From assembly GCA_002772995.1 (NCBI GenBank), contig PFCO01000001.1, positions 128,244 to 192,243 on the forward strand: a stretch of 64,000 nucleotides of DNA. The letters run 5' to 3'. The notes below the pieces were generated by a model. That model did no database searches and was not told the DNA's origin. It saw nothing but the letters and a program-made list of their open reading frames with translations. Of this stretch, positions 278 to 46,638 are shown piece by piece (position 1 is the stretch's first letter; each line of letters begins with the position of its first letter). Made by a program: the position numbers and the translations under genes. The stretch comes from Candidatus Niyogibacteria bacterium CG10_big_fil_rev_8_21_14_0_10_46_36. Lineage in GTDB: Bacteria > Patescibacteriota > Minisyncoccia > 1-14-0-10-42-19.

Positions 278-306
278 AAAAACAAGCCCTTCCGGGCTTG
301 TTTTAT
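278..306 (-). terminator. Intrinsic terminator downstream of the HAD gene.
   Basis: ACAAGCCC-TTCC-GGGCTTGT 8-bp stem at 283-302, with a T-run on the minus strand. Confidence 0.6.
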
Positions 307-965
307 ATGTATCGTTTTATGTCGAGCACATTATGCACAACAGGGAACGGCTTATGCTCATCCCAAGCATTCATTTCATTCCTCACCCCCACAAACGCAC
401 ACCCAACCTCCTCTGCAGCTTTTACATCAGTATCGCTGTCTCCGATGAGAACCATCTCGTGAGCACTCACCCGTTCTCGCTCCAATATTTTTTCGAAATT
501 TCCTTGCTTTGCGGCAAGGATGCCGCCGTCTTGAGTTATCGGCCGGCCATATACTTCTTTAAAATATTTTCTTATATCCAGCCGTTCAAGAATGCGTATA
601 AGCGCGTCCTCGGGCGTTCCGGAATTAATGTATAACGAATACTGCCCCGATAAGTCTTTAATCGCCTCAAGCGCTCCGGCAACGCATCCCCGCTCAATAA
701 TTTTTGATTCTACCTTTTTGCTGTATGCGTCAGCATACCGCACTACAAGAGGTTCTATTCTATGTTCCGGAGTTTGCAACTCCTTCAAAATAGCGCGGAA
801 GATAGTATATCGTGACTCTTGCTCTTGCAAGGAAGCAAACACCTTCTGTACTGCGGCATGCCCCTCGGTATATGTCTCCGGAAAAAAATCAAACCACGCG
901 TCTTGCTTCAACTTTGGAGAATCAACGATAACGCCGTCAAAATCAAATACAATAACTTTTATCAT
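303..965 (-). CDS. HAD-superfamily hydrolase (beta-phosphoglucomutase/phosphatase-like).
   Basis: The N-terminus reads VIVFDFDGVIVDS (DxDGV motif I), and GDSDTDVKAA near the C-terminus matches motif III. Length is 220 aa. Confidence 0.7.
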   Translation of the reverse strand: MIKVIVFDFDGVIVDSPKLKQDAWFDFFPETYTEGHAAVQKVFASLQEQESRYTIFRAILKELQTPEHRIEPLVVRYADAYSKKVESKIIERGCVAGALEAIKDLSGQYSLYINSGTPEDALIRILERLDIRKYFKEVYGRPITQDGGILAAKQGNFEKILERERVSAHEMVLIGDSDTDVKAAEEVGCAFVGVRNEMNAWDEHKPFPVVHNVLDIKRYI

Positions 966-1000
966 GCTGCCATCCTATAATCCAAATGCGCTCTCGTCAA

Positions 1001-1036
1001 ACAAAAAATACCAGCATACATGCTGGTATTTTATAT
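1001..1036 (-). terminator. Intrinsic terminator downstream of the NeuB-family gene.
   Basis: ATACCAGCAT-ACA-TGCTGGTAT stem at 1008-1029, flanked by AAAAAATA and TTTTAT. Confidence 0.6.
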
Positions 1037-2110
1037 TTAAGAAATGTGCTTCTCAGTAATCACGCTGTCTTCTTCAATATCTACTGACGCAGTTTTCCCA
1101 AGAACTTCTTTTATCTGATACGGCTTAAATCCGTACCCGGGGCTCTTACATGAGAGCATATCCGCAGTAATGACTGTTCCCGCTTTGATGCGTTTTTGAG
1201 AGACAATACTCTTTCCATGCTTGTTGCGGACCTGCTCTTCGTCAGAAAGAAAATTTTTACGCGGCGTTCCCCATGCCCGTTCTATCCTGCGAGTGCTATC
1301 TACCATCTCTTTAAACTCTTCCGGCTCAATGCTTACCGTGCCATGATCAGGGCCCGGCATCGATTTATCAAGAGTGATGTGGCGCTCAATGGTTTTTGCG
1401 CCCATAGCCACTGCGGCGATGCTTGGAAGAATGTCCCGCTCATGCCCGGAATATCCTATGGGCACCTGAGCGTACCGTTTTTTAAAAAACGGTATGGTGG
1501 AAAGATGCAACTTTTCGTCAGACGTCGGGTACGAAGTAACGCAATGCTTAATAACAAGCTGGTTATTGTGCCTCAGTATAGTCCCCACTGCGCGATCAAG
1601 TTCTTCTATGGTAACCATGCCTGAAGAAAGAAATACCGGCTTTCCTTTCCGGGCAACATATTCCAAAAGCGGAGTGTTGGTAACATCAAAAGAAGCAATT
1701 TTGTATGTCTCTACACCTATGTCTTCCAGAAAATCAACACTATGCGTATCAAACGGGGTTGCAAAAAATATAACCCCCAATGACTCTGCATATTCTTTTA
1801 GCCGGATGAATTCTTCCTTTGTTAACTCAAGCGCTTCGCGATATTCGCCGTATGTCTTGCCGTATACTTCGTCTTTTGTTTGCGGCTTTTCACGAAGCTC
1901 GCGCGCAAACACATCAACAATAGAGCGTTTTTGCAATTTTACAGCATTTGCTCCCGCCCAAACCGCTTTTTCTATTGTACGCTTTGCAACATAATAATCC
2001 CCGTTATGATTATTGCCAATCTCGGCAATAAAAAAAACGGGCGCGCCGTTTCCAACCTGCACATTGCCTATCGTAATCTGAGATCTAGCTTTTTCAAGGT
2101 ACTGTTTCAT
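1037..2110 (-). CDS. NeuB-family nonulosonic acid synthase (N-acetylneuraminate/pseudaminate/legionaminate synthase type) with a C-terminal SAF domain.
   Basis: FIAEIGNNHNGDYYVAKRTIEKAVWAGANAVKLQKR is the NeuB TIM-barrel signature. The roughly 60 aa C-terminal SAF/antifreeze-like domain reads KRIKAGTVITADMLSCKSPGYG. Length is 357 aa. Confidence 0.8.
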   Translation of the reverse strand: MKQYLEKARSQITIGNVQVGNGAPVFFIAEIGNNHNGDYYVAKRTIEKAVWAGANAVKLQKRSIVDVFARELREKPQTKDEVYGKTYGEYREALELTKEEFIRLKEYAESLGVIFFATPFDTHSVDFLEDIGVETYKIASFDVTNTPLLEYVARKGKPVFLSSGMVTIEELDRAVGTILRHNNQLVIKHCVTSYPTSDEKLHLSTIPFFKKRYAQVPIGYSGHERDILPSIAAVAMGAKTIERHITLDKSMPGPDHGTVSIEPEEFKEMVDSTRRIERAWGTPRKNFLSDEEQVRNKHGKSIVSQKRIKAGTVITADMLSCKSPGYGFKPYQIKEVLGKTASVDIEEDSVITEKHIS

Positions 2111-2192
2111 AGCAGTCCTATAATAAAAAGCGCTGCCCCTTCAAGCAACGCAAATCATTAATAGACAATAAATACATTATTTTATCAAATGC

Positions 2193-3086
2193 TCAGAATG
2201 CTCTTTTGCAAGCCTGCCACATATCCTTTGCGATTCGCTTTTTACTCCAAAATACGAAACGAATCCATATCGGCACAAAGCCAATCTTTCTTTGCAGTGG
2301 AACAACCGGGGATGTTATCGGCCTCCACAAAAACATCCATACATAGATACTAAAAGAAAAGGGACGCGTATATACATGCCCGATCTGCTCATTGGCGTAC
2401 CGGATACGCCCTACTGTTTTTTTGTATTGCTTCGTAAATACTTTGTCCGGCACCGCATAAAATGGCGTCGCCAAAGCAAGCTCTGCAAGCATGGGCCTAT
2501 CCCAGCGTATGCATTCTGGCGTATTCCGCAAAAACGCGCGCTGAATAAATGCGGTGCGGAATAATCCATACAAATAGATATGAAGCGGCGCATCAAATGC
2601 CAATTTCTCATAAATTGCGTAAGGCGTTTGATGTGTTGTATGCAAATTGCCGGTAAGACGGACGCTATCCTTGAAGACGCCGTCATCATAAAAACGATCA
2701 AACGACCCCATTGCTACCTGATATTCGGGATGCGCCTCAAGCGCAGCAAGCAGCAGTTCTATAAAATTCTTTTCCCATACATCGTCATCAGACGCTAACA
2801 TAAAATACGAACCGCGCGCCTCACGGATCACAAAAGAAATATTCGCGACTTGTCCCTTATTTTCTGTGTGACGGATATAACGAATGCGCGAGTCTCTGGC
2901 TGCGTATGCCGTACATATTGCATCAGTGCTGTCAGAAGAAGCATTATCGGAAATGATGATCTCTGTGCGCGCATGCGTTTGAGCAAGCAATGAGTCAAGC
3001 GCGCGGCACAATTCCTTTTCACCATTTTCCCGGGAAACACTATTATAAACAGGCAGTCCTATTGAAATGAGCGGTTCGTGGGTCAT
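2193..3086 (-). CDS. Family 2 glycosyltransferase (GT-A fold).
   Basis: ISIGLPVYNSVSRENGEKELCRALDSLLAQTHARTEIIISDNASSDST is the typical GT2 N-terminal region with a DxD region. It overlaps the upstream gene by 4 nt (ATGA). Confidence 0.75.
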   Translation of the reverse strand: MTHEPLISIGLPVYNSVSRENGEKELCRALDSLLAQTHARTEIIISDNASSDSTDAICTAYAARDSRIRYIRHTENKGQVANISFVIREARGSYFMLASDDDVWEKNFIELLLAALEAHPEYQVAMGSFDRFYDDGVFKDSVRLTGNLHTTHQTPYAIYEKLAFDAPLHIYLYGLFRTAFIQRAFLRNTPECIRWDRPMLAELALATPFYAVPDKVFTKQYKKTVGRIRYANEQIGHVYTRPFSFSIYVWMFLWRPITSPVVPLQRKIGFVPIWIRFVFWSKKRIAKDMWQACKRAF

Positions 3087-3916
3087 AGGATATTACTATA
3101 AAAATCAGCTGTCTTCCGGATGCCTTCACGTAATAATGTGCGTGGCTCCCATCCCGTATCTTTCTTTATGCGCGTGATATCGGCGCATATCGTGTTGTGA
3201 ATAGGTCTCGGTATATAGTTGTACGAAAGAGCCACATGCGACACCATCGTACCAACCGCGCAAGCGCTGCCTGATCCTATATCATACGTCCCCGACGCCT
3301 GCTCTGATCCGACAAGGTCGCACATCGCATCAGCCGCGTCTTCTACGAAAACAAAATCATGGGAAGCATTCGGATTTTTAATATCCGGGATTATGCCATT
3401 TGATACTTGAGTGATCACTGACGGCAAAAGGGAGTCTTTCCGCTGCCCGGGTCCATACACATAAAATAGGCGCGCCCATATAAAACGAATATCGCTTTTC
3501 TGCGCGAGCAATTCTCCGTATTCCCGAACAGCTTGTTTCGCCCGCACAAATGATACGGGTGCTTCCGGGTCGTGCTCCCATCCGCTCCCCACGCCTACGA
3601 TCGTCCTGCATCCGGAACTGCGTAAAACATCGAAAAGGGTGATGCTATAAGCAGCATTTTTATCGCTTGTTCTTTTGTCATACTGAGGGATGCCCTCCCA
3701 TGCCATATGTATCGCCGCATCAGGAGCATAAGCATTCAAGGCGTCTTTCCATCGCAAACTATCCGCAAGATCTCCTTGTATGATGCGTTCTTTCGAACGC
3801 TCTTTTCTCCTTCCTGGAGAGCGCTCAAGAGATAATACATAATGACCACGCCTTAAAAGCAATTCGCGTACATACGAACCTATAAACCCAGTGCCTCCTG
3901 TTATAAAAATTCTCAT
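3083..3916 (-). CDS. NAD-dependent sugar epimerase/dehydratase (extended SDR).
   Basis: MRIFITGGTGFIGSYVRELLLRRGHYV carries the GxxGxxG motif. It has a 4-nt overlap with the upstream gene. Confidence 0.75.
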   Translation of the reverse strand: MRIFITGGTGFIGSYVRELLLRRGHYVLSLERSPGRRKERSKERIIQGDLADSLRWKDALNAYAPDAAIHMAWEGIPQYDKRTSDKNAAYSITLFDVLRSSGCRTIVGVGSGWEHDPEAPVSFVRAKQAVREYGELLAQKSDIRFIWARLFYVYGPGQRKDSLLPSVITQVSNGIIPDIKNPNASHDFVFVEDAADAMCDLVGSEQASGTYDIGSGSACAVGTMVSHVALSYNYIPRPIHNTICADITRIKKDTGWEPRTLLREGIRKTADFYSNIL

Positions 3917-5115
3917 GATAACGCGCTGGCAATAGATAAGAGGTCTTTTTGTCCGTTAAGCAAAAATGTTTTGCACCCCGCAGCGTTCCCCGCCTGCTCA
4001 TCACGGATATCATCCCCAATAAAAATAGCTTTCGTAATATCAAAGAAATGGTCGTGTGCCGCTTGTAAAAGCATCCCCGGTTTTGGTTTTCTACATCCGC
4101 AATTATCTGTGTCATTATGAAAACACGCATATATGCCGCGCACGGAAATCCCTTCTTTGTCGCATACATCCCGCATACGAGCATGAATATCGTCTACGTC
4201 CTTTTCCGCCATATATCCGCGGGCAACACCGCGCTGATTTGTTGCGATAAAAATATCATATCCCTTCCGCGTGAGCATACGCATCGCGTCTAACGCATCT
4301 GGCAAAAATTCGAACTCACTCCACCGCTTTACATAATCCCCCTCTCGCGGTTTTTTATTTATAACTCCATCCCGGTCAAGTATGACACTTTTTTTAGGAG
4401 TAAAAAATTTTTCAGCAACTAATAACCGATCGTGATTAGTAATTGTATAATAATGATGCTCAGTACTATACGCAGCAACCTTGCCCTGCGCTACAAGCGG
4501 CGGCAGGATGTCCTCTTCAAATGAAATATTCCCCGAAGGCATACCCTCACACATATCACGCGTAAGGACAAAACAACCTATATCAATAGCGTGAGCACGT
4601 TTATCTTTCCGCATTTTATCGTATACATACACCAGACCGTCCGAACGGAGAGCCACGTTATTTTCATTCCCGTACTCGCCGGCGCCGTCGGTATTTGCGT
4701 ACACCGACATAAGAACCGGCGCACCGATACGAACATATTCTGCGGATATGCGAGAAAGTATAAACGGCCAATAATTATCTCCGTACAATAAAAAAAATGT
4801 ATCGTGCAAAGCATGGCGCGCATCATATATGCGTTTGCCTGTTTGGTCTTCAGGCGAACCGTTGCTGTATGCGATATGTACACCGAAACGCGTTCCATCC
4901 CCAAAATGAGACTTAATCTTCTCCCCCAAGTATCCAATGAGTAATACTATGTCTGTAATACCCTCATCCCGGAGACGCGTTATCAGATATTCAAGAAATG
5001 GACGCCCATACACGGGCGCCATTGGTTTTGGTACCGTGCGCGTAAGCGGCAAAAGCCGCTCTCCTTTGCCGCCCGCGAGTATAACCGCTTGTCGTATGGG
5101 AGTCTTCATATCCAT
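3913..5115 (-). CDS. Bifunctional fusion of a sugar-1-phosphate nucleotidyltransferase (HddC-like) at the N-terminus and a D,D-heptose-1,7-bisphosphate phosphatase (GmhB-type HAD) at the C-terminus.
   Basis: The N-terminal region AVILAGGKGERLLPLTRTVPKPMAPVYGRPFLEY is the RmlA/GlmU-type nucleotidyltransferase G-rich loop. The C-terminal region KSVILDRDGVINKK...FIATNQRGVARGYM...CGCRKPKPGMLLQA...IFIGDDIRDEQAG matches GmhB motifs I-IV, including the Cys-rich insert. Length is 400 aa. Confidence 0.7.
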   Translation of the reverse strand: MDMKTPIRQAVILAGGKGERLLPLTRTVPKPMAPVYGRPFLEYLITRLRDEGITDIVLLIGYLGEKIKSHFGDGTRFGVHIAYSNGSPEDQTGKRIYDARHALHDTFFLLYGDNYWPFILSRISAEYVRIGAPVLMSVYANTDGAGEYGNENNVALRSDGLVYVYDKMRKDKRAHAIDIGCFVLTRDMCEGMPSGNISFEEDILPPLVAQGKVAAYSTEHHYYTITNHDRLLVAEKFFTPKKSVILDRDGVINKKPREGDYVKRWSEFEFLPDALDAMRMLTRKGYDIFIATNQRGVARGYMAEKDVDDIHARMRDVCDKEGISVRGIYACFHNDTDNCGCRKPKPGMLLQAAHDHFFDITKAIFIGDDIRDEQAGNAAGCKTFLLNGQKDLLSIASALS

Positions 5116-6137
5116 TCAAGTTGGGCATTCACCCGTTTTGTATCAAGAAGATGTTTGATCTGAAGAAGGCGATTCGTGCGCCGTCCGCGAAAATCGTCTT
5201 CTGTAAATCCTATACGGCCAAAAAACGAGACGAGTTCCTCTGCCCCCTTCTGCATAGTCCACTGCGGCGCAAATCTGTCTCCAAATGCGTTATAAAATTT
5301 TTTAAATGAAATTTTATATGTGCGGGCATCGCTCCCATGTTCGCCTGTATAGGTGACTTTGCTTTTCGGCACTGCTTTCTGCACCGCTTCCGCAATTTCC
5401 CGGACCGTGTAGTTGCCGTGCGGATACCCCACATGAAATGCCTGTTTTTGCACAATATCCGCAGGAGCTTCGAGTGCCAGCATAAATGCCATTGCGGCAT
5501 CCTGTACATGGAGTACCGGGCGCCAAGGAGTCCCATCGCTTTTTATCTCTATCACCCCCGCTGTATACGCAGATCCCGTTAAACTATTCAGCACAATGTC
5601 AGAGCGCAGATACGGACTTACGCCGAATACCGTAGACGGACGAAGCACCGTAACAATAAAATCATCCGACGCAAGAGCGCGGATTGCTTCTTCCGCTCTC
5701 CATTTTGTATCCGCATATGCTGTCAACGGATGCTTTGAGCTCTTATCTTCGTCAAGCTCTTCAACGCTTTCAGATATGCCATACATGCTTTGTGAAGACG
5801 AAAATACAAAACGCTTAACGCCCGCGTTTTTTGCACATACCGCAAGATGCGCCGTTCCTTTAAAATTAATGTCTTCTGTTAAAGACGGATTCAAGTCGCC
5901 CAACGGATCGTTTGAAAGGGCAGCAAGATGAATGACGGCATCCATATCCGCAAGGTCCTGAGCTGTAAGAGCGCGAATATCTTTGCGCAAAAAAACAATA
6001 TCAAAAGGCGTGCCGTCAAGCCGGCATTCTTCGTAATATCCTATATCACACCCAGTCACCTCGTGCCCGCGCCCCTGTAGCAGAGGAACAAGCACAGAAC
6101 CAATATAGCCGAGATGTCCGGTCACAAATACTCGCAT
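5106..6137 (-). CDS. NAD-dependent epimerase/dehydratase (possible nucleotide-heptose epimerase).
   Basis: MRVFVTGHLGYIGSVLVPLLQGRGHEVTGCD is a Rossmann GxxGxxG. It is the first gene of the minus-strand operon, with a 10-nt overlap with the next gene. Confidence 0.7.
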   Translation of the reverse strand: MRVFVTGHLGYIGSVLVPLLQGRGHEVTGCDIGYYEECRLDGTPFDIVFLRKDIRALTAQDLADMDAVIHLAALSNDPLGDLNPSLTEDINFKGTAHLAVCAKNAGVKRFVFSSSQSMYGISESVEELDEDKSSKHPLTAYADTKWRAEEAIRALASDDFIVTVLRPSTVFGVSPYLRSDIVLNSLTGSAYTAGVIEIKSDGTPWRPVLHVQDAAMAFMLALEAPADIVQKQAFHVGYPHGNYTVREIAEAVQKAVPKSKVTYTGEHGSDARTYKISFKKFYNAFGDRFAPQWTMQKGAEELVSFFGRIGFTEDDFRGRRTNRLLQIKHLLDTKRVNAQLEWI

Positions 6138-6166
6138 GCAAATAAACTATAAAATAAATATCGCAT

Positions 6167-6195
6167 TTGCGCTAATTGCACATCTATTGTAAAAT
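6167..6195 (+). promoter_or_regulatory. Candidate sigma70-like promoter for gmhA.
   Basis: TTGCGC (6167-6172), a 17-nt spacer, then TAAAAT (6190-6195). It lies 23 nt upstream of the gmhA ATG at 6218, inside the divergent intergenic region. Confidence 0.3.
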
Positions 6196-6217
6196 ATGTA
6201 TGCTACTTTTATTGAAT

Positions 6218-6802: not shown

Positions 6803-6804
6803 TA

Positions 6805-7782: not shown

Positions 7783-7787
7783 ACAAA

Positions 7788-8237: not shown

Positions 8238-8254
8238 GGTGTGTTTATTATATC

Positions 8255-9478: not shown

Positions 9479-9479
9479 A

Positions 9480-10847: not shown

Positions 10848-10851
10848 TGTT

Positions 10852-11847: not shown

Positions 11848-11851
11848 ATCA

Positions 11852-14601: not shown

Positions 14602-14610
14602 GGACTTGCG

Positions 14611-15778: not shown

Positions 15779-15784
15779 ATCGCG

Positions 15785-16540: not shown

Positions 16541-16579
16541 ATACCATTCATACTACAAAAAAAGGTGATAAAATCAAGA

Positions 16580-16620
16580 AAAAACCGCACCGGATACCCG
16601 GTGCGGTTCTGTTTATTTTT
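16580..16620 (-). terminator. Bidirectional intrinsic terminator.
   Basis: Stem AACCGCACCGG / CCGGTGCGGTT with loop ATAC at 16586-16611. It is flanked by an A-run on one side and TTTATTTTTTT on the other. Confidence 0.6.
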
Positions 16621-20352: not shown

Positions 20353-20355
20353 GCA

Positions 20356-25781: not shown

Positions 25782-25795
25782 TATAACTGCAATCC

Positions 25796-25837: not shown

Positions 25838-25852
25838 ATATAATATTCTGTT

Positions 25853-27549: not shown

Positions 27550-27580
27550 TAAAAGATTGATAGTTAGAGATTAGGATATA

Positions 27581-33768: not shown

Positions 33769-33771
33769 AAA

Positions 33772-39039: not shown

Positions 39040-40773
39040 ATGAATAAACGCATACAATCTATCCTTCTCCACCCCCACCATACGATCAAAGATGCAATGA
39101 AAAAAATGGAGGAAGGAAAAAAAATCGGACCCTCAGCCCCCTGGGGTATTTGTCTTATTGTCGACGAAAAAAAGAAGCTCAAAGGCGTAGTGACTGACGG
39201 TGATATACGCCAGGCATTGCTCGCCGGACACACGCTCTCCACGCCAGTCTCGTCCATCATGACCAAAAATCCCCTTACCGTAAAAAGCGCGTCTCTTCCG
39301 AAAGATATGCTTATAGACCTTCACCACGAATTTAAAAATAGGAACGCAACAGAAAACAAATATCATCAAATAGTTATCGTGCATGAAAATGGCGCCGTTG
39401 AAGACGTGGTAACACCGTTTGAATTATGGCGACGGAGTGAACTCAAAACAAAAAATGTCGCCATCATAGGGCTTGGGTATGTCGGCCTCACTCTCGGGCT
39501 TAGTTTTGCGGATCTCGGCATTAAGGTGTTTGGTATTGATACAAGCGCGCATGTTGTAAAGCAATTAACAAAAGGGGTTCCTCATTTTTATGAGAAAGGC
39601 CTTGATGCGCTCCTCAAAAAACACATCAATAAGAATCTGTTTGTTAAAAAAACGCTCTCAAAAAATGAAAGCGACATCTATATTATTTGCGTTGGAACTG
39701 CAACTGATGAAAAAAATAATATGATATCGTCATACATTAAAAACGCGGCTCACGCAGTGGGGAAAGCGCTCAAAGCCCACGACCTGATTGTTCTCCGTTC
39801 AACCGTTGTCGTAGGAACGACGCGCGATATTGTGGTCCCCATTCTTGAAAAAGAATCGGGATTAAAAGCGGGACGCGATTTTTTCATCGCGTTCGCTCCG
39901 GAACGCACCGCCCAAGGAAAAGCACTTGAAGAACTTCGTACACTTCCGCAAGTCATTGGCGGGCTCAACAAACAAAGCCTTGATTATACCGCTCAACTCT
40001 TCCAACCTCTTACAAATACCATTATCAGCGTATCCAGTATGGAAGCGGCAGAAACGGTAAAGCTGCTTAATAACACATTCCGCGATATCAGCTTCTCGTT
40101 CTCAAATGAAGTAGCGCAGATATGCGACCGCATGAACTTGAACACGATGGAAATTATCCGTGCAGCAAATGAGGGCTACCCCCGGAACCCAATTCCTTAC
40201 CCAAGCCCCGGAGTGGGAGGCTCATGCCTGGTCAAAGACCCGTACATTTTTGCAGAATCAGCAAAAAAAGTGAACTACAAAGCCCAGCTTCCGCTCGTCT
40301 CCAGAGCGATAAATCAACATATGGTTGATTTTGTCCACGAGAAAGTGCACGCGTTCTGCAAGCGAAATAAAAAATCTGCGAAACATGCAAAAATATTTAT
40401 TGTGGGAATGGCATTTAAAGGAAGCCCGGAAACATCCGACATCCGTAACTCCACCGCGGTAGATATTACAAAAAAGCTTCAGCGTACATATAAAAATATT
40501 GTAGCGTATGATCCGGTGGCAACATCATACGACCTAAAAAAACTGGGAATAAAAATAGCACCCTCCCTTGCCGCAGGATTTAAAAATGCGGATTGTGTTC
40601 TTTTGCTTAATAATCACCACTCATATAAAAATATAGATATCCATAAAGCGACGCAGGCAATGAACACACCAAGCCTTCTTTTAGACGGCTGGAGTGTATT
40701 TGCGCCGCAGGATTTTGCCCACTTTGACCATATTACCTACGATGGCTTGGGAGTGGGACAACTGCCGCAGTAA
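39040..40773 (+). CDS. Fusion of a tandem CBS-domain N-terminus with a UDP-glucose/GDP-mannose/UDP-ManNAc dehydrogenase family nucleotide-sugar dehydrogenase.
   Basis: Residues 1-150 read IKDAMKKM...GVVTDGDIRQAL...SIMTKNPLTV..., a CBS pair. Then VAIIGLGYVGLTLGLSFADLGIKVFGID gives the NAD-binding motif, and the catalytic region GGSCLVKD matches GGxCxxKD of UGDH. Length is 577 aa. Confidence 0.8.
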   Translation: MNKRIQSILLHPHHTIKDAMKKMEEGKKIGPSAPWGICLIVDEKKKLKGVVTDGDIRQALLAGHTLSTPVSSIMTKNPLTVKSASLPKDMLIDLHHEFKNRNATENKYHQIVIVHENGAVEDVVTPFELWRRSELKTKNVAIIGLGYVGLTLGLSFADLGIKVFGIDTSAHVVKQLTKGVPHFYEKGLDALLKKHINKNLFVKKTLSKNESDIYIICVGTATDEKNNMISSYIKNAAHAVGKALKAHDLIVLRSTVVVGTTRDIVVPILEKESGLKAGRDFFIAFAPERTAQGKALEELRTLPQVIGGLNKQSLDYTAQLFQPLTNTIISVSSMEAAETVKLLNNTFRDISFSFSNEVAQICDRMNLNTMEIIRAANEGYPRNPIPYPSPGVGGSCLVKDPYIFAESAKKVNYKAQLPLVSRAINQHMVDFVHEKVHAFCKRNKKSAKHAKIFIVGMAFKGSPETSDIRNSTAVDITKKLQRTYKNIVAYDPVATSYDLKKLGIKIAPSLAAGFKNADCVLLLNNHHSYKNIDIHKATQAMNTPSLLLDGWSVFAPQDFAHFDHITYDGLGVGQLPQ

Positions 40774-40779: not shown

Positions 40780-41916
40780 ATGGCGCCTCATTCATACATC
40801 ATCACCAACTTTGCATATGGCACGGGCCCTTATGTGCGCACCACGGAACTCGCACTCGCGGTAAACGACGAACTGGAGCGCCTTGGGCATCCGCGTTCTT
40901 CTATTGTCGTCCCCCTTATCTATGGAGAAAAACAAAAACGCATTATGCAGGAAGAGTTTTCTTTGCTCTTTGCCAAGCACCCAAAAGAGATAATTCTTGA
41001 TGAAACATTCGGCTCGCATCTCAAAAAAACTTTTTATATCGGCACCGATACATACGAAACGCATCTAAACGCGTGGGCAAAAAATGCTGAAGACGCATCA
41101 AAAAAGCTAGAGAAACACATACAAGATACATACGGCAACCGTATTGCAATGATTTTGCAACGCTCCCCAAGGGTCCGTATCAATATCGCTCCCTCGTACT
41201 TTGCCTCATTCGGTTACCTGTCAGATATTTATGAGCGCTCCATAGATAATACCGATATAGCAATACGCAAAGAAACGCTTCTTCATGCCGCCGAATATGC
41301 GTCCTCCATTGAAAAAGAGCACTTGATGCACATTATCTCAACGCCCGGAACATTTTCATGGAAACACTATTCAAAAAAATACGCTGACGAAATTCTTTCT
41401 CCCCCATTGATATCGCCTTATACACATACCGAAGCGCCCGTTGAAAAAGGCATATTCGTGAATGTTACAGGCATCCCAGGCCTTGCAGGACTCTACAAGG
41501 CTGCGTTAGAGATGGAGACCCACATCTATACGAATGACACAACGACGCTCCCCCAAGGAACAAAAACTCCGTCTTCCGTTATGTTTAGCGGGAACATACT
41601 ATTCCAATTTGCGCGCACGGGCTGGAGCTCGGTATGGCTCTCCCACCTTTCCGGCACCCCGTTGGTGTATCCGCAATGGAAACACACAGACGATCCCGAA
41701 ATATACTTTAATAATATATGCGTCAAAACATTGGGGTTGGGAATCCCATACGAAGGCCAGCATATCGATTCCCTTATTAAAACTACTGAAACGCTTCGTG
41801 CTACAATAAAATCGTACAACGCAAAGATTTTGGACACATTCGGAACAACAAACGGCACACACTATGCTGCAAAAAAAATAGCGGAACATTTTGCAAAAAA
41901 TCACTTATCACTATGA
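40780..41916 (+). CDS. Hypothetical protein, possibly a divergent GT-B fold glycosyltransferase/2-epimerase-like.
   Basis: The 378-aa protein has an N-terminal IITNFAYGTGPYVRTTELALAV and a C-terminal ARTGWSSVWLSHLSGTPLVYP arrangement, reminiscent of GT-B nucleotide-binding halves. No definitive motif was found. Confidence 0.3.
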   Translation: MAPHSYIITNFAYGTGPYVRTTELALAVNDELERLGHPRSSIVVPLIYGEKQKRIMQEEFSLLFAKHPKEIILDETFGSHLKKTFYIGTDTYETHLNAWAKNAEDASKKLEKHIQDTYGNRIAMILQRSPRVRINIAPSYFASFGYLSDIYERSIDNTDIAIRKETLLHAAEYASSIEKEHLMHIISTPGTFSWKHYSKKYADEILSPPLISPYTHTEAPVEKGIFVNVTGIPGLAGLYKAALEMETHIYTNDTTTLPQGTKTPSSVMFSGNILFQFARTGWSSVWLSHLSGTPLVYPQWKHTDDPEIYFNNICVKTLGLGIPYEGQHIDSLIKTTETLRATIKSYNAKILDTFGTTNGTHYAAKKIAEHFAKNHLSL

Positions 41917-42629
41917 GAAAAAAGAAATACGCCATTCTCGCCGTAATCCCGGCCCGAGGTGGATCAAAATCCATACCCCGGAAAAACATAAAACCCCTTG
42001 CGGGAAAACCATTACTCACCTATTCCATAACGGAAGCGCTGAAAAGCAAATTACTTACAAGAGTAGTTGTTTCCTCTGAGGATAAGCGCATCATCCGCAC
42101 AGCAAAGAGATACGGAGCTGAAGCGCCATTTGTCCGCCCAAAAGCACTCGCAACAGACACCGCCCTTGCCGTGCCTACCATCCAGCATGCTGTACGAGAA
42201 ATGGAACGCCAAGAAAACACAACATACGATTATGTTGTTATGCTTCAGCCGACCACTCCGCTTCGCACCACCCGCCATATTGATGCTTGTCTCCTGCAGC
42301 TCATCCGCACGAAAGCTGATTCGGTCATAAGCGTTGTCCGCGTATGGGACAAGCACCCCTACCGCATGAAAACAATAAAGCGCGGGCGGCTCGTAGACTT
42401 TGGGAAAGAAACAAAAGAGAATATGCCCCGCCAAAGCCTTCCTCCGGTGTACTTGAGAAACGGGGCGATATACGCATGCAAAAGAAATGTACTGATGCGG
42501 CAAAACAGTTTTAAGGGAAAAGATTCCCGCCCCTACATCATGACAGAAGAAGAGTCGGTGAATATAGATAGCGTTTTAGATTTTCAGATTGCCGAACTTC
42601 TGATAAAAAATCGACGAAGCAAGCGTTAA
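41913..42629 (+). CDS. Second CMP-sugar cytidylyltransferase (NeuA/KdsB family).
   Basis: AVIPARGGSKSIPRKNIKPLAGKPLLTYSI. Length is 238 aa. It shares the KNIKPLAGKPL core with the 32432..33163 gene. Confidence 0.8.
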   Translation: MRKKKYAILAVIPARGGSKSIPRKNIKPLAGKPLLTYSITEALKSKLLTRVVVSSEDKRIIRTAKRYGAEAPFVRPKALATDTALAVPTIQHAVREMERQENTTYDYVVMLQPTTPLRTTRHIDACLLQLIRTKADSVISVVRVWDKHPYRMKTIKRGRLVDFGKETKENMPRQSLPPVYLRNGAIYACKRNVLMRQNSFKGKDSRPYIMTEEESVNIDSVLDFQIAELLIKNRRSKR

Positions 42630-43408
42630 AATATTTCTTTCCCGAACAGCGTAAGCACCTTTCGCAATATAGAAAATATACGGCTCTCATAACGATATGT
42701 GTACTCCGGAATAACATCCCCCCCGAATGATTGTTTGAATTGAGCAATCCCCTTTTTTGCGTTTTGAGAAAAATTAATCCCTCCCAAATCAATCGTCGTG
42801 TATCCTTTTTCTTTGCCGTACATACATATCTCCCACACAAGACGGCGGGTAGCATACCCAATGATGCGCGGATCCATGTCTTCGTCTTTGCGCAAAGACG
42901 CTATCGTCTTGAAACGCAGAATGCCATCAGCACGATACGAAGCAATGGATACAATCATTTTTCCCTTCCAATAGGCATTTGACAGCAGGCATTGGCTAAA
43001 CTCCCGTTTAAGGGAAAGAAGCGCGCCATCAACAGTCTTTGCGTGAGCATACACGGCATATGACTCGCGGCGGTTGGTGTCATCTACCCTAAATGTGAGT
43101 TCCGGAATGTGCTCGCTTTTCCGTATCTCATTGCGCGTATTTTTTTTGAACCGGGCAAGAATAGCATCGGGGGCATCTGTAAGCGGAATGACTGCTGTAT
43201 GCTTTTCGGTACGCGTACAGCCTCGGGGTGCTGCGCATTTTACATACGAAACAAGATATATGTAGTGATGTTTCTTTTGCAGAGACGCGAGCTCACCCGC
43301 AGTAACCGTATGCATCACAGTACGGATATACGGGAGACCACAAAGAGAAAAGTGAGGCAATAATTCTAGGAGCCTTTGTTTATGCTGTTGCTCGTCTATT
43401 TGTTGCAT
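42626..43408 (-). CDS. FemAB-like / GNAT-fold acyl(aminoacyl)transferase (Acetyltransf_6-type).
   Basis: The 260-aa protein has the C-terminal region GYTTIDLGGINFSQNAKKGIAQFKQSFGG, resembling FemAB/BioF2-like acetyltransferase domains. Family-level call only. Confidence 0.4.
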   Translation of the reverse strand: MQQIDEQQHKQRLLELLPHFSLCGLPYIRTVMHTVTAGELASLQKKHHYIYLVSYVKCAAPRGCTRTEKHTAVIPLTDAPDAILARFKKNTRNEIRKSEHIPELTFRVDDTNRRESYAVYAHAKTVDGALLSLKREFSQCLLSNAYWKGKMIVSIASYRADGILRFKTIASLRKDEDMDPRIIGYATRRLVWEICMYGKEKGYTTIDLGGINFSQNAKKGIAQFKQSFGGDVIPEYTYRYESRIFSILRKVLTLFGKEIF

Positions 43409-44061
43409 GCAATAACGTAATGAAAATCGCGCGTTTTGAATAAATAGGTATCGTAGTGCCCTATCTTAATATCGGAAAACTGCCCATATATGTTTCGTAT
43501 CTCGTCTTCGCTATCAAAACAATACAAAATAGCGTCTTGTTGCGAAGGTGTGCGCGAAGGCCGGTATAAAGACGGGGCTATCTCTTCTGCGCATAAATTA
43601 TGCTTTGTAGATACCATGGATGATAAAAATTGCCCGCCCGATTTCAATACGCGAAACACCTCGGCAAGCGACTCGGTGAGCGTTTCGCGTGAGTTGTAAT
43701 ACAATGACTGCCATGCAACCACCACATCAAATGTATTGTCATCAAACGGGAGTCTGGGAGAATCAACCCGTTTAAACTCCGCATTAAACCCAGATTTTGC
43801 CAGAAGCTCTTTTGCGTGCGCGATCCGGTTTTCCGCAAGTTCAACGCCAGAACACATAAACCCCTCCTTTGCAAAATGTAAAAGATCCTGACCTTCGCCA
43901 AACCCAATAGAAAGAAGTTTTTTGCCCTTACCGTCAGGAAATAAAGCTTTTTGCGCCTTTATGAGATGTATGTCCGGATGCATGCCATGTATGGCCATAT
44001 GTTCCCATGTTTCGGCATTTCGCTTATAAATATTTTTTTCTGAAAATGACATACTAGGCAT
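43396..44061 (-). CDS. Class I SAM-dependent methyltransferase.
   Basis: KKLLSIGFGEGQDLLHFAKEGFMCSGVELAENRIAHAKE is motif I plus an acidic beta-2 end. FDVVVAWQSLYY is motif II/III. Confidence 0.65.
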   Translation of the reverse strand: MPSMSFSEKNIYKRNAETWEHMAIHGMHPDIHLIKAQKALFPDGKGKKLLSIGFGEGQDLLHFAKEGFMCSGVELAENRIAHAKELLAKSGFNAEFKRVDSPRLPFDDNTFDVVVAWQSLYYNSRETLTESLAEVFRVLKSGGQFLSSMVSTKHNLCAEEIAPSLYRPSRTPSQQDAILYCFDSEDEIRNIYGQFSDIKIGHYDTYLFKTRDFHYVIACNK

Positions 44062-45424
44062 TCTGAAGAATAAAATTGGCTAATCGTTCTGATGACCTTC
44101 CGTCTATCTTGTAACACATCTTGTCCACGAGATCCTTGCGAAGCTCTCTATCCTGCCCCGGGTCATCCAGATATGCCCTTATCTGCGCGAATAACTCGGG
44201 GAATGATTTAATCACCTTTACACTCCCTGTATCAAGCACATGGCGAAAATGCGCAAGATCTTCCCAACGCCTTACAGACTGGTGATACGGCCGTTTTTTA
44301 TACCCGTCAAATCCTATTGTAAGCACAGGCTTATCAAATATTGCCGCCTCTATTGCAGTCGTTGAAAAAAGGGAAATAACTACGTCTGCGTGGTACATCA
44401 TATTCACATAGTGCAAAAAATTATCCATGCTATTTGTATTGTCTATCCAATTTATGAAAACATTCTGATCTTGCTCGAATTGCAGATACTTTGCCTTTTC
44501 GCTTGTTTGCGGATACGGACGCAGCAATAGCCGCACAGAAGGTCCAAAAAAACCTTTCGATATCTGGTTGGAGATTGCTTGCAAAATATCCGGCTCGTCA
44601 GCCGCATATACGCTTCCCGATACAAAAAGGATGACTTTGCTGTCTCCCGGCATGCCCATCTTCTTTAAGAATTCATCTCGCTGTATTACATGGCGCTCAA
44701 TACCGTAATAATTATCCCATTGCGGAAAGCCAACCACATCAACCTCCGAAGACTTGTACCCCTCATATTTGACTGCTTCTTTTTTCATTGGCTCGTTCTG
44801 CACCGCAAGAACATCCGTTTGCACGGGTACAAAATATTTATTGAAATGGTCCCACTTTGAAGGCATCCCCGCTGTTTTTATATTCCGGCGTTTTGCTTCG
44901 GCCGCTATTTCTATATCGGGGAAATGCGCGATATCAGAGCAAAACACAAGATCAGGATTATGCGTATCAAATAATGCTTTATACGGTCGCTCAGTAAAAA
45001 TCTTTTGATAGAGCCACGGAACTACATTCCGTTTTATTATGTTAAATTTTCCAAAGGTATGCGCTATAACCCATTTTATAACCCATAAGTGTCTGTTCCC
45101 TCCGGCGGGAGGCGCATCCAGCCGGTCGCCAACAGTAGCAAGCAATTTCGTAGTGCCAGTAAATACCAGATATGAATAGAAAAAATGAAACGCGCGCTCA
45201 AGCCGCGTTTTGGGACGAAAATAAGATATATTCTCTATCACTACATGCGGCATATTTTTTAATTCTTCCGCAGAAAAAAATTCGGGCAATACTTGAGAGC
45301 GCCGCAGTATGACAATATTATGGTCTCCACGCAAAACAAGTTTCCGGACAACACTGTCCGGAGGCAAAAAAAGGTTTCGGAATACGTGCACATCGTACAC
45401 ACTGAAAAAAATTGTTTTTTTCAT
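44054..45424 (-). CDS. GT-B-like surface carbohydrate biosynthesis protein, paralog 4 of 4.
   Basis: PSKWDHFNKYFVP is the degenerate form of the shared motif. The C-terminus reads ADVVISLFSTTAIEAAIFDKPVLTIGFDGY. The start is moved to the MKKTIFF ATG (45424) so that it overlaps the GT4 gene by ATGA. Confidence 0.4.
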   Translation of the reverse strand: MKKTIFFSVYDVHVFRNLFLPPDSVVRKLVLRGDHNIVILRRSQVLPEFFSAEELKNMPHVVIENISYFRPKTRLERAFHFFYSYLVFTGTTKLLATVGDRLDAPPAGGNRHLWVIKWVIAHTFGKFNIIKRNVVPWLYQKIFTERPYKALFDTHNPDLVFCSDIAHFPDIEIAAEAKRRNIKTAGMPSKWDHFNKYFVPVQTDVLAVQNEPMKKEAVKYEGYKSSEVDVVGFPQWDNYYGIERHVIQRDEFLKKMGMPGDSKVILFVSGSVYAADEPDILQAISNQISKGFFGPSVRLLLRPYPQTSEKAKYLQFEQDQNVFINWIDNTNSMDNFLHYVNMMYHADVVISLFSTTAIEAAIFDKPVLTIGFDGYKKRPYHQSVRRWEDLAHFRHVLDTGSVKVIKSFPELFAQIRAYLDDPGQDRELRKDLVDKMCYKIDGRSSERLANFILQNA

Positions 45425-46638
45425 ACGCTCGCTTTTACAAAAAGACGTATGAGGGCATCGGCGGTTTGCGCCCAAGAAAGCTTTTTCTCAACAAACGACC
45501 TGCCGTTTTTTCGGAGAGTATTGTATAGCTGTGAATCAGAAACCAGTATCTCTATGCTTTTCGCCAAAGCTCCGACGTCTTTTGCACTAAATAAAACAGC
45601 ATTTTCCTTGTCTGTCAATACTTCTGATGCCCCTGCGGTATCCGAAACAATAACGGGCATCCCACAAGACATTGCCTCAAACACCGCCAGCCCCCAACTT
45701 TGCATGTGATTCGGAAACAGGAAAAGATGATGCTTATGGTATTCTGCCAAAAAATCTTCTTCGGATATCTCTCCCGTAAAACGCACACGCTTCTGCAGAC
45801 CTAAGCGAGCAACAAGACTTACGAGCGATGCATAATATTTTTCATTGCTTTTTGTGCTTCCGGAAATAGTGAGCGTCGCATTGTATCCCCTCTGCACTAA
45901 GAGACCGAGTGCAGATATGCCGTCCTCGAAACGCCGGTGCGGAAAAAATATGCCGTTCATAAAAAGTGACACCGTTTCTTTTGTAGGCGGGATGCGCTCT
46001 TGGTATGAAAAATAATTAGCATCAACGCCGTTCCGGATTATCGTTGCGTTTTTCCCAAAATATTTTTTTGCCCATTTCTTATCGCGCTCATCCAGCACGG
46101 CAATCTCGTTCTGCGCCTTAATAAACTTATGAGCATCATAGGCATCATATACCCGGTAAAACGCGCGCTTTACAAGAGATACGCGGAGTTGCGAATCTAA
46201 TTTTTGTGCGCGGAGCATCATAAATTGTTTTGTCGGCATGTCATGCATCACCCATACGGAAGGCACATTTTTTGAGCGCTCCTTAAAATAGTACGCAACA
46301 CGGTAACATACATGGTCATGCGGGTTCAGTATGTCTGTATCCTTATCAATAAGGTCAGCGAGTTCTTTTGATGCGTCGTTCTCACGGAACATCTGCCCGA
46401 ACGAGCGGAATATATTGACTATGCTCCACGCGCTCCGATGCTTGTACGTAGGGAAAAAATCCAACGAACGCACATCCATGCCCTCAAGCAAATCCGCAAA
46501 GCAATCTTCCTTTGAATAGAGAAAGGTGTAGAGCACCACTTCGTGCCCTGCTTTTTTGAGCTCCCGCGCAACATATAAGACATGACGCTGGACACCTCCG
46601 CGTGTATTCAATTTTCGCACTATCATAGCTACCTTCAT
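45421..46638 (-). CDS. Family 4 (GT-B) glycosyltransferase.
   Basis: The N-terminus MKVAMIVRKLNTRGGVQRHVLYVARELKKAGHEV together with the C-terminal E(x7)E-like FEAMSCGMPVIVSDTAGASEVL is the GT4 signature. Confidence 0.75.
   Translation of the reverse strand: MKVAMIVRKLNTRGGVQRHVLYVARELKKAGHEVVLYTFLYSKEDCFADLLEGMDVRSLDFFPTYKHRSAWSIVNIFRSFGQMFRENDASKELADLIDKDTDILNPHDHVCYRVAYYFKERSKNVPSVWVMHDMPTKQFMMLRAQKLDSQLRVSLVKRAFYRVYDAYDAHKFIKAQNEIAVLDERDKKWAKKYFGKNATIIRNGVDANYFSYQERIPPTKETVSLFMNGIFFPHRRFEDGISALGLLVQRGYNATLTISGSTKSNEKYYASLVSLVARLGLQKRVRFTGEISEEDFLAEYHKHHLFLFPNHMQSWGLAVFEAMSCGMPVIVSDTAGASEVLTDKENAVLFSAKDVGALAKSIEILVSDSQLYNTLRKNGRSFVEKKLSWAQTADALIRLFVKASV

Follow-up and report, generated by a model that had tools for sequence, protein, structure and literature searches.

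The 64,000-nt stretch of DNA analysed here, referred to in the following as the window, is part of contig PFCO01000001.1 (positions 128,244 to 192,243) of Candidatus Niyogibacteria bacterium CG10_big_fil_rev_8_21_14_0_10_46_36, an ultra-small groundwater bacterium of the Parcubacteria within the candidate phyla radiation (CPR). Most of it is occupied by a locus for the biosynthesis and decoration of a glycan, whose 46 open reading frames (ORFs) lie back to back at positions 303-46638, with a largest gap of 160 nt according to the ORF listing and a hydropathy and gap script. When every ORF was scanned against Pfam and NCBIfam, carbohydrate-pathway or tailoring domains were found in 44 of the 46. 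A first-pass annotation, made from the letters of the window, had already proposed such a locus of at least 45 consecutive genes with heptose and nonulosonic acid pathways and a heavy tailoring capacity, and in these respects it holds up. The encoded proteins carry the NCBI tags COU47_00810 to COU47_00940 and are all deposited as 'hypothetical'. The MetRS of the window matches a protein of Candidatus Niyogibacteria bacterium CG10_big_fil_rev_8_21_14_0_10 at 100% identity.

The length of about 46 kb given by the same annotation is too short, since the window edge cuts the locus. By exact-protein look-ups, we walked leftward into contigs whose every overlap with the window or with one another is 100% identical (L001 over window positions 1-12110, L014 over 1-2904), and these carry the locus 24 kb further. 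In full, it comprises 66 genes over ~70.7 kb, from window coordinate about -24,057 to 46,638 (COU47_00615-00940), or 15% of the longest contig that carries these genes (459 kb); the portion in the window is its promoter-proximal two-thirds. One of its two boundaries lies within the window:

46679-46707, both strands: hairpin terminator with a 12-13 bp stem and T-runs on either strand, in the spacer that separates the stop codon of P5CDH from the first locus gene

This hairpin (dG -27 kcal/mol, z -4.4, with 0 of 200 shuffles as stable) is the top terminator-like site in 16 kb and lies 40 nt upstream of the first gene, a GT4 glycosyltransferase. It had been described as a strong bidirectional terminator at which the locus ends; the terminator is real, but because the locus genes run on the minus strand, it marks the start side, where it ends the upstream ProDH-P5CDH unit and insulates the beginning of the locus. 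The downstream end lies outside the window, where the last gene is followed by a hairpin with a T-run, a 770-bp spacer and the genes for S30AE and SecA. Strong terminators were seen solely at these two ends, and no housekeeping gene lies between them. Beyond the right end, the genes do become housekeeping ones, as had been stated (P5CDH, ProDH, TatD, MetRS, GlyRS, RecO and IleRS by Pfam and NCBIfam). The layout on a single strand, for which more than 90% of the genes had been counted, is no feature of the locus: the minus strand carries 40 of the 46 ORFs (87%), but likewise 11 of the 11 flanking housekeeping genes, and since the GC skew is uniform as well, the strand bias is genome-wide.

Two membrane proteins bear on the fate of the glycan:

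35158-36552, minus strand: divergent Wzx/MOP-type flippase (predicted), ~11 predicted transmembrane segments, the only polytopic membrane protein of the locus part in the window
~20 kb left of the window, inside the locus: Wzy_C+TPR membrane protein COU47_00635, 758 aa, PF04932, 13 predicted transmembrane segments followed by a 300-aa soluble TPR tail

The first of these has no direct match in Pfam (up to E=5), NCBIfam or the PDB, even with a family profile. An exhaustive search, however, yielded 418 representative homologues, and as 52 of the 57 that were sampled match PF01943 (Polysacc_synt; 22 match PF13440), the protein, whose UniRef name is Polysacc_synt_C-containing, can be assigned to the MOP flippases as a divergent member. 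It is by transitive homology only that the Wzx flippase proposed earlier is retained. COU47_00635 bears the UniRef name 'O-antigen ligase-related', and its TPR tail hints at a protein acceptor. The whole 70.7 kb encode one flippase and one Wzy_C protein. No initiating phosphoglycosyltransferase is found among the 66 genes, and no Wzz/PCP chain-length regulator domain in the window ORFs or the extension gene calls; a 218-aa Bac_transf phosphoglycosyltransferase (PF02397; TIGR03025, E=1e-37) is encoded 4.8 kb past the downstream end, on the opposite strand and beyond SecA. The earlier statement that Wzy/WaaL, Wzz and an initiating enzyme are missing is thus correct for the window, and for Wzz also in the extension, but not for the Wzy_C protein of the extended locus or the phosphoglycosyltransferase nearby. 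Together with the enzyme families described below, this inventory of one flippase, one Wzy_C protein and a phosphoglycosyltransferase in the vicinity would make up a standard lipid-linked, flip-then-transfer architecture.

The nonulosonic acid genes and the putative transferases for their products are found at the following positions of the window:

1037-2110, minus strand: nonulosonic acid synthase of the NeuB family with SAF domain (PF03102, E=1e-78; TIGR03569 NeuB 320 bits, cut-off 400, ahead of PseI at 254 bits)
32432-33163, plus strand: CMP-nonulosonic acid synthetase, copy 1 (PF02348; top match PseF, 118 bits, cut-off 206)
41913-42629, plus strand: CMP-nonulosonic acid synthetase, copy 2 (PF02348; PseF 168 bits, cut-off 206)
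9480-10877, minus strand: TagF-like GT-B transferase, paralogue 1 (PF04464, E=9e-12; hhalign probability 99.7 to the CPR TagF-like profile)
33772-35145, minus strand: TagF-like GT-B transferase, paralogue 2 (PF04464, E=2e-9; invariant motifs of the six paralogues kept)
37580-38926, minus strand: TagF-like GT-B transferase, paralogue 3, the most divergent (PF04464 21.8 bits, cut-off 22.1; aligns with the other paralogues, invariant motifs kept)
44054-45475, minus strand: TagF-like GT-B transferase, paralogue 4 (PF04464, E=1e-11; hhalign probability 100, E=1e-50, to the CPR TagF-like profile)

Over the full locus, the nonulosonic acid set amounts to two NeuB, one NeuC and three CMP-sugar synthetases. 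The equivalog cut-offs are missed by NeuB and the synthetases of the window, which, with one NeuB+SAF and two CTP_transf_3 genes, nevertheless bear out the pathway as first proposed; the NeuC-type hydrolysing 2-epimerase (L014:17734-18909) exceeds its cut-off (TIGR03568 337 bits, cut-off 236). A clear PseH/LegH N-acetyltransferase was not found with Pfam or NCBIfam, which gave only a weak FemAB-like protein.

The count of four TagF-like (PF04464) proteins in the window stands, although one (37580-38926) scores just under the gathering threshold, and the full locus has six. The paralogues are only 18-22% identical to paralogue 1, yet invariant motifs are common to all six, and hhalign relates them to a CPR-wide family with probabilities of 99.7-100; paralogue 3 is 40% identical to a TagF-like gene on the contig of a relative (L089). 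Four of the six adjoin a gene for a SAM methyltransferase, often with an overlap of 8-26 nt (9480-11847, 33166-35145, 43396-45475 and L014:8852-12053). The same pairing is seen in two relatives (L087, L089), which suggests coupled modules that transfer a sugar and then methylate it.

Between and beside these genes lie two modules for further sugars. The first is the heptose module at 3083-9478, which is adjoined by NeuB, a HAD phosphatase and a GT2 glycosyltransferase:

303-965, minus strand: HAD-family phosphatase beside NeuB (PF00702/PF13419; top NCBIfam matches are generic HAD families)
2193-3086, minus strand: GT2 glycosyltransferase (PF00535, E=2e-30)
3083-3916, minus strand: SDR-type NDP-sugar epimerase/reductase (PF01370; without equivalog match)
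3913-5115, minus strand: fusion of an HddC-like sugar-1-phosphate nucleotidyltransferase and a GmhB-like heptose bisphosphate phosphatase (PF00483 and HAD; GmhB 155 bits, cut-off 178; HddC 75 bits)
5106-6137, minus strand: SDR-type NDP-sugar dehydratase/epimerase (PF01370, E=2e-40)
6176-6802, plus strand: sedoheptulose-7-phosphate isomerase-like protein, GmhA-like SIS (PF13580; top NCBIfam matches are GmhA models, 81-82 bits, below cut-off)
6805-7782, minus strand: GHMP kinase, HddA-like heptose-7-phosphate kinase (PF00288/PF08544; top NCBIfam match HddA, 144 bits, below cut-off)
7788-8237, minus strand: RmlC-like cupin, 3,5-epimerase type (PF00908; TIGR01221 weak)
8255-9478, minus strand: NDP-sugar C-methyltransferase (PF08421, PF13489 and PF08484, E=4e-43)

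All four domain types of the route to GDP-D-glycero-alpha-D-manno-heptose (GmhA, HddA, GmhB and HddC) are adjacent at 3913-7782, with scores that all lie below the equivalog cut-offs; for the GmhA, HddA and GmhB types, heptose-pathway enzymes rank first among the NCBIfam matches, and a transketolase gene is located three genes from this set. At the level of domains, the scans agree with the heptose pathway of the first-pass annotation.

The second module (12812-23505) is one for deoxy-amino-sugars:

12812-13762, minus strand: SDR, GDP-fucose-synthase-like 3,5-epimerase/4-reductase (PF01370; top NCBIfam match Fcl, 155 bits, below cut-off)
13759-14601, minus strand: Fe(II)/2-oxoglutarate dioxygenase of the PhyH family (PF05721, E=2e-23)
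14611-15276, minus strand: HAD hydrolase (PF13419, E=2e-23)
15269-15778, minus strand: DJ-1/PfpI family protein (PF01965, E=5e-48)
15785-16540, minus strand: Cupin_2 protein, possible sugar isomerase/epimerase (PF07883 weak; no NCBIfam match)
16613-17548, minus strand: pyruvate-dehydrogenase E1 beta-like protein (PF02779/PF02780; PDH E1 beta models weak)
17515-18471, minus strand: pyruvate-dehydrogenase E1 alpha-like protein, thiamine-diphosphate subunit (PF00676, E=8e-20; TIGR03182 108 bits, below cut-off)
18438-19436, minus strand: SDR, Fcl-like epimerase/reductase (PF01370; Fcl 137 bits)
19394-20197, minus strand: classical short-chain dehydrogenase, ketoreductase type (PF13561/PF00106, E=1e-50)
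20356-21303, minus strand: SDR-type NDP-sugar epimerase/dehydratase (PF01370)
21290-22468, minus strand: DegT/PseC-type sugar aminotransferase (PF01041, E=2e-64; PseC 186 bits, cut-off 423; RfbH 178 bits, below cut-off)
22546-23505, minus strand: NDP-hexose 4,6-dehydratase (PF16363, E=2e-58; dTDP-glucose and GDP-mannose dehydratase models 115-117 bits; LegB 101 bits, cut-off 475)
31290-32405, minus strand, outside the module: pyruvate kinase barrel (PF00224, E=4e-62, full barrel; pyruvate kinase models 260-271 bits, below cut-offs)

With its 4,6-dehydratase, its DegT aminotransferase and four SDR/Fcl-like proteins, the module has the domain content of a set that would serve 6-deoxy-amino-hexoses. 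The E1 alpha/beta pair, recognized as a thiamine-diphosphate enzyme in the first-pass annotation, stands alone among the deoxysugar genes, with the 4,6-dehydratase and the aminotransferase within 5 kb; domain scans found no lipoyl, E2 or E3 domain in the locus. The pyruvate kinase is an odd member of a glycan locus: it has 371 residues, consists of the barrel only and lacks the C-terminal regulatory PK_C domain. It may be the sole pyruvate kinase of the cell or a dedicated pyruvate source for the E1 pair. Along with the DJ-1/PfpI protein, the cupin, two further HAD hydrolases and a CBS-fused NDP-sugar dehydrogenase, it had been absent from the earlier inventory.

The remaining locus genes in the window mostly serve decoration and assembly and lie for the larger part at 23498-46638, a region that also holds the two CMP-sugar synthetases, the pyruvate kinase barrel and three of the four TagF-like genes listed above:

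10852-11847, minus strand: sugar O-methyltransferase, NanM-like (TIGR04371 67.8 bits, cut-off 44; Pfam methyltransferase matches weak)
11852-12733, minus strand: GT2 glycosyltransferase (PF00535, E=6e-18)
23498-24379, minus strand: sulfotransferase-like protein, weak (PF03567 25.9 bits, cut-off 22; PF06990 25.3 bits; UniRef 'Sulfotransferase domain-containing')
24540-25781, plus strand: secreted or membrane-anchored LamG (concanavalin-like) protein (PF13385, E=4e-24; N-terminal hydrophobic segment, S/T/N-rich C-terminal half; in a low-GC patch)
25853-26749, minus strand: FkbM-family methyltransferase (PF05050; GC 35.8%, the minimum of the locus)
26875-27549, minus strand: TylF-type O-methyltransferase (PF05711)
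27581-29434, minus strand: AsnB-type glutamine amidotransferase (PF00733 and PF13537; TIGR01536 448 bits, cut-off 267)
29437-30456, minus strand: SAM methyltransferase (PF13489, E=2e-21)
30464-31300, minus strand: sulfotransferase-like protein, weak (PF03567 28.7 bits, cut-off 22)
33166-33768, minus strand: Methyltransf_24 methyltransferase directly downstream of a TagF-like gene (PF13578)
36549-37577, minus strand: CE4 polysaccharide deacetylase (PF01522, E=6e-18; PgaB/IcaB-like N-terminal matches)
39040-40773, plus strand: fusion of a CBS domain and an NDP-sugar 6-dehydrogenase of the UDP-ManNAc/UDP-Glc type (PF00571 and PF03721/00984/03720; TIGR03026 381 bits, cut-off 190)
40780-41916, plus strand: uncharacterised protein that shares an operon with the dehydrogenase gene and a CMP-sugar synthetase gene (no family match)
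42626-43408, minus strand: FemAB-like (GNAT-fold) acyl/aminoacyl transferase, weak (PF02388 28.8 bits, cut-off 24, C-terminal stretch only; no NCBIfam match)
43396-44061, minus strand: SAM methyltransferase with an 8-nt overlap with the upstream TagF-like gene (PF13649, E=5e-18)
45421-46638, minus strand: GT4 glycosyltransferase, the first transcribed gene of the locus (PF00534/PF13439; COU47_00940)

Nearly all tailoring enzymes of the first-pass annotation were recovered, namely the C-methyltransferase, the Fe/2OG dioxygenase, AsnB, CE4, the weak FemAB-like protein and the two sulfotransferase-like proteins, whose matches are weak (E about 1e-5 to 1e-6). The one correction concerns the methyltransferases, which had been counted as seven in addition to the C-methyltransferase; there are seven in the window, but this number includes the C-methyltransferase, and nine in the full locus. 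The three classical glycosyltransferases (two GT2, one GT4) are joined by a second GT4 in the full locus. Of its two NDP-sugar dehydrogenases, the CBS-fused one has UDP-ManNAc dehydrogenases as its top equivalog-type matches. The LamG protein could be a lectin or a glycan acceptor, judging by its domain and composition. For the protein at 40780-41916, nothing was found in Pfam (up to E=5), NCBIfam or PDB searches, and a single-sequence AlphaFold model (pLDDT 33) was unusable; its N-terminal 'YGTGPY' loop and its layout give us the impression, and no more than that, of a GT-B/PseG-like protein.

The out-of-window part begins with a gene of which the window still includes the 5' part:

1-213, minus strand: adh_short gene, 283 aa, cut by the window edge (PF00106)

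It is followed outward by transketolase, aldehyde dehydrogenase, TagF-like, DUF2061, TagF-like, two methyltransferases, CotH+beta-helix, VTC, DUF4956, the second NeuB, NeuC, the third CMP-sugar synthetase, a 2-hydroxyacid dehydrogenase, the Wzy_C+TPR protein, a short NDP-sugar dehydrogenase, an SDR, a GT4 and another SDR (COU47_00615). Three of its elements deserve mention in their own right. In mid-locus, about 9-13 kb left of the window (L014:12091-16198), a fusion of a CotH-kinase-like and a NosD/beta-helix domain (889 aa) precedes genes for a VTC-domain protein and for a membrane protein with DUF4956. The 2-hydroxyacid dehydrogenase is SerA-like (L014:19621-20228 / L084:6679-7707) and is joined in gene order with NeuC and the CMP-sugar synthetase, an arrangement that recurs in many CPR and other environmental contigs (67 metagenome loci, L017-L083); the enzyme may act on the nonulosonic acid or provide a substituent of the glyceroyl type. 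Finally, the short UDPG_MGDP dehydrogenase (300-339 aa, L084:10059-11066), which lacks the C-terminal UDP-binding domain, adjoins the Wzy_C-TPR gene here and in five of the five relatives' loci examined (L087, L089, L024, L020 and L023).

For comparison, we inspected stretches of 10-21 kb each from relatives with a MetRS identity of 57-80%; a P5CDH search of genome contigs returned a single relative. In two other Niyogibacteria (MetRS 57-59% identical), the order IleRS-RecO-DUF11-GlyRS-M16-AI2E-MetRS-TatD is kept, but after TatD come LeuRS and GlmS; proline and glycan genes are lacking there, and in one of the two genomes an IS200-type transposase gene is present. The closest metagenome-assembled genome (MAG; MetRS 80% identical) has ProDH and P5CDH, and its next ORF is unrelated to GT4. 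The out-of-window 24 kb of the locus are a core common to other Parcubacteria: a TagF-like gene with its methyltransferase, NeuC, CMP synthetase, 2-hydroxyacid dehydrogenase, NeuB, a short dehydrogenase and Wzy_C-TPR are found in the closest MAG, in more distant Parcubacteria and in groundwater contigs, with identities of 31-86% to this part of the locus. The locus genes of the window have few orthologues in these stretches, with paralogue-level matches only, and the 46 kb they occupy are likely, though not proven, to be a lineage-specific, variable tailoring part.

The composition agrees with a mosaic. A deviation in GC is indeed present but small (45.1% in the locus, 46.9% in the flank; per-gene p=0.018), the per-gene standard deviation is larger in the locus (0.030 vs 0.012), and the tetranucleotide pattern correlates with that of the flank at 0.84-0.94 in the locus, compared with 0.93-0.97 within the flank. 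A low-GC patch at 24001-28000 (40.9% GC, minimum r=0.84), which includes the genes for LamG and two methyltransferases, may have been acquired separately. The window shows no mobile-element signature, since no tRNA, Rfam family, long or flanking repeat, integrase or transposase was found in it, and the homologues of the tested genes are mostly from other CPR bacteria.

Three observations concern the flank itself. The IleRS (58769-62251, minus strand, 1160 aa) has a complete histidine-phosphatase domain inserted in its catalytic domain (PF00300, E=6e-39); the insert spans residues 491-663 and contains RHG at position 495 and SHGD further on. In two other Niyogibacteria (L007, L008), the IleRS is called with this insertion too. 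Here and in every Niyogibacteria relative seen, RecO and GlyRS are separated by a DUF11/CLIPPER-repeat protein (56194-58137, minus strand, 647 aa), a candidate surface protein that has a hydrophobic segment at its N-terminus. Lastly, the 337-nt spacer between MetRS and TatD (50612-50948) has no Rfam match; public annotations call a plus-strand 83-aa ORF in it, and a terminator-like hairpin is found at 50924-50950.

Given this gene content, we consider it probable, with good though not full confidence, that the locus encodes a Wzx and Wzy_C-type lipid-linked pathway for a glycan with heptose, a branched deoxysugar and nonulosonic acid, and most likely that its 71 kb serve to build, export and attach a heavily decorated surface sugar chain. 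An oligosaccharide would be begun on polyprenyl phosphate and elongated at the cytoplasmic face, where the TagF-like enzymes would probably add nonulosonic acids from CMP-sugars. The E1 pair probably attaches a two-carbon branch to a 4-keto sugar, as proposed by analogy with AviB1/B2 and Pau11/12 (PMC4425429), and AsnB might make an acetamidino or uronamide group, by analogy with a characterised cluster (PMC6120980). Pyruvate kinase and transketolase, as sources of pyruvate and sedoheptulose-7-phosphate, may feed the branching and heptose routes. The Wzx-like protein (35158-36552) would then flip the lipid-linked glycan, and the Wzy_C+TPR protein would either polymerise it or move it en bloc onto a surface acceptor, for which our leading guess is a protein, be it an S-layer subunit, a pilin, the LamG protein or the like.

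The TagF-like proteins probably use CMP-activated nonulosonic acids, because the only cytidylyltransferases inside the locus are three CTP_transf_3 genes, because TagF-like genes adjoin CMP-sugar synthetase genes here and in relatives, because a CDP-polyol pathway and an ABC exporter are missing, and because TagB-like proteins are the transferases for pseudaminic and legionaminic acid (Pse/Leg) in Tannerella forsythia (PMC5420450). Several points weigh against the overall scheme. The TagB-domain protein SpsB, from a legionaminic acid operon of B. subtilis, is dispensable for Leg transfer (PMC7439481). A confident model of one member of the TagF-like family (pLDDT 92.7) matches TarL and TagF in its fold, but also generic GT-B proteins; a fold search ranked NeuC-type epimerases at the top and did not separate the protein from generic GT-B folds. 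Most equivalog-level NCBIfam scores lie below the curated cut-offs, so that the substrate assignments (GDP-heptose, which nonulosonic acid, which nucleotide) hold at the level of families; for the nucleotidyltransferase half of 3913-5115, other sugar-1-phosphate nucleotidyltransferase models even outscore HddC. Wzy_C proteins can be polymerases, ligases or O-oligosaccharyltransferases, among which sequence alone cannot tell; the phosphoglycosyltransferase is linked to the locus by proximity only; and one locus may have more than one product. Furthermore, a 148-aa PF01467 cytidylyl/adenylyltransferase is encoded 4.3 kb outside the locus and might supply a CDP-polyol donor.

One rival reading is a teichoic-acid-like polymer, in which the six TagF-like proteins would be CDP-polyol phosphotransferases that build a poly(polyol-phosphate) or glycosyl-polyol-phosphate on a lipid carrier, with the sugars as its substituents. 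Yet the 148-aa protein is closer to RfaE domain II (71 bits) than to TagD (partial, 51 bits) and falls below every cut-off, there is no TagD, TarI or TarJ inside the 70.7 kb, and the ~98 kb inspected hold no ABC transporter of the TagGH type, no PF00953 or PF03808 protein and no TagO/TagA/TagB linkage set. As the export gene is moreover that of a Wzx-type flippase and the TagF-like genes keep company with CMP-sugar synthetases, we regard such a polymer as quite unlikely. A glycosylated secondary metabolite is far less probable still and hardly to be credited: C-methyltransferase, TylF, DegT and AviB-like E1 types are common to macrolide, orthosomycin and paulomycin sugar pathways, but the reading was rejected for want of aglycone genes in the locus (no PKS, NRPS, terpene or other) as well as of resistance or efflux genes, while Wzx, Wzy_C, NeuB, NeuC and CMP synthetases, heptose genes and ten envelope-type transferases are present.

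Rather than the nature of the product, two other alternatives concern the unity and the origin of the locus. The 70.7 kb could comprise at least two neighbouring glycan loci, such as a conserved nonulosonic-acid protein-glycosylation core and a separate polysaccharide or S-layer cluster, with further export or attachment genes perhaps elsewhere. Several modules that have nucleotide-sugar routes of their own, no fewer than seven gaps above 60 nt between genes, four plus-strand insertions, the heterogeneous per-gene GC with its low patch at 24.5-27.5 kb and the presence of the core in relatives without most window genes all speak for it; the single flippase, the single Wzy_C protein, the terminators at the two ends only and the lack of any housekeeping interruption speak for one locus, and we consider the division doubtful, though a serious contender. 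Concerning origin and not function, the window part could also be a recently acquired genomic island beside the conserved core. The GC shift, the lowered tetranucleotide correlation, the absence after TatD in two Niyogibacteria, one with a transposase gene at that place, and the differing junction in the closest MAG are in line with this; but the shift is small, the window is free of integrases, transposases, tRNAs and flanking repeats, the homologues are mostly from CPR bacteria, and the relatives compared are distant. On balance, an island appears unlikely.

CPR bacteria (Patescibacteria) are ultra-small and have little biosynthetic capacity. Those that have been cultivated are attached to host cells, and it is at the cell surface that this way of life takes place. 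For so reduced an organism, the locus is very large and elaborate, and thus a large investment. Glycosylation processes in one CPR group, the Saccharibacteria, have been termed 'unexplored' (PMC11623550), sialic acid genes are mentioned in passing for Peregrinibacteria (PMC4736985), and no paper linking Patescibacteria with Pse or Leg was found in full-text literature searches. The locus offers a parts list, with a conserved core made up of the nonulosonic acid cassette, the TagF-like transferases and Wzy_C+TPR and with a probably variable tailoring arm, and its six divergent TagF-like candidates beside three CMP-sugar synthetases bear on the open question of the transferases for Pse/Leg-type sugars. 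Going further, one may picture a conserved Parcubacterial surface glycosylation, in which the Wzy_C+TPR protein would act as an O-oligosaccharyltransferase that chooses S-layer, pilin or lectin-like proteins by its TPR tail, a CPR-wide TagF branch would have switched from CDP-polyols to CMP-nonulosonic acids, with each transfer coupled to a dedicated methyltransferase, and the lineage-specific 46-kb arm would add C-methyl heptose, a two-carbon-branched amino sugar, sulfate and amide. If true, this arm would provide a strain-specific glycan coat with which an episymbiotic cell recognises its host or evades phages; all parts taken jointly, we offer the picture as a speculation that is more probably wrong than right.

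Several known systems share parts of this repertoire. Wzx/Wzy O-antigen and capsule loci and PglL/PilO systems rely on a polyprenyl-phosphate phosphoglycosyltransferase, on glycosyltransferases in the cytoplasm, on a MOP flippase and on a membrane enzyme of the Wzy_C superfamily. The last three of these component types are found in our locus, and the candidate initiating enzyme lies outside it; no Wzz/PCP was detected, and Wzy_C is fused to a roughly 300-aa TPR tail. Lipopolysaccharide production is not known from CPR bacteria, and for this reason the acceptor would not be lipid A-core. GDP-D-glycero-alpha-D-manno-heptose with 6-deoxyheptose tailoring occurs in Campylobacter jejuni capsules and in the S-layer glycan of Aneurinibacillus. 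As in these systems, genes of the GmhA, HddA, GmhB and HddC types are adjacent to SDR and RmlC-like tailoring genes, whereas the fusion of GmhB with a nucleotidyltransferase, the C-methyltransferase within the module and the scores below equivalog cut-offs set our locus apart.

TagF/TarL and the TagF-like capsule polymerases (PMC5974469; PDB 3L7I, 8VA1, 8A0C) have in common with the proteins described here the PF04464 domain and the GT-B fold and are among the top structural matches; the sequence identity to TagF/TarL, however, is 14-18%, there is neither a CDP-polyol pathway nor an ABC exporter in our locus, and the partners are CMP-sugar synthetases and methyltransferases. Likewise, AviB1/AviB2 of avilamycin and Pau11/Pau12 of paulomycin biosynthesis (PMC4425429) are stand-alone E1 pairs without E2/E3 among deoxysugar genes and near a 4,6-dehydratase; they belong to actinomycete antibiotic pathways, unlike the envelope glycan context here, and are likened by gene context. 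The sps operon of Bacillus subtilis (PMC7439481) also unites a nonulosonic (legionaminic) acid pathway with the TagB-domain protein SpsB and a GT2 in a monoderm, but it is small and its acceptor is the spore crust.

The closest characterised analogue is the 27-kb general protein O-glycosylation cluster of Tannerella forsythia (PMC6120980, PMC5420450), a polycistronic locus that likewise encodes a Wzx-like flippase, a CMP-nonulosonic acid pathway, TagB/TagF-like GT-B proteins, AsnB, UDP-ManNAc-dehydrogenase-type and epimerase genes, and several glycosyltransferases and methyltransferases. In Tannerella, the TagB/TagF-like GT-B protein is the nonulosonic acid transferase, a role that the TagF-like proteins described here would share. 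Our locus is 2.6 times larger, with six TagF-like proteins and three CMP synthetases, adds heptose, PDH-E1 branching, C-methylation and sulfotransferase-like genes, and includes the Wzy_C+TPR gene, while the Tannerella oligosaccharyltransferase is encoded outside its cluster; its host is a CPR bacterium and not a diderm Bacteroidota. The pathway is therefore of a familiar kind, and it is its size, its combination of parts and its host that are unusual.

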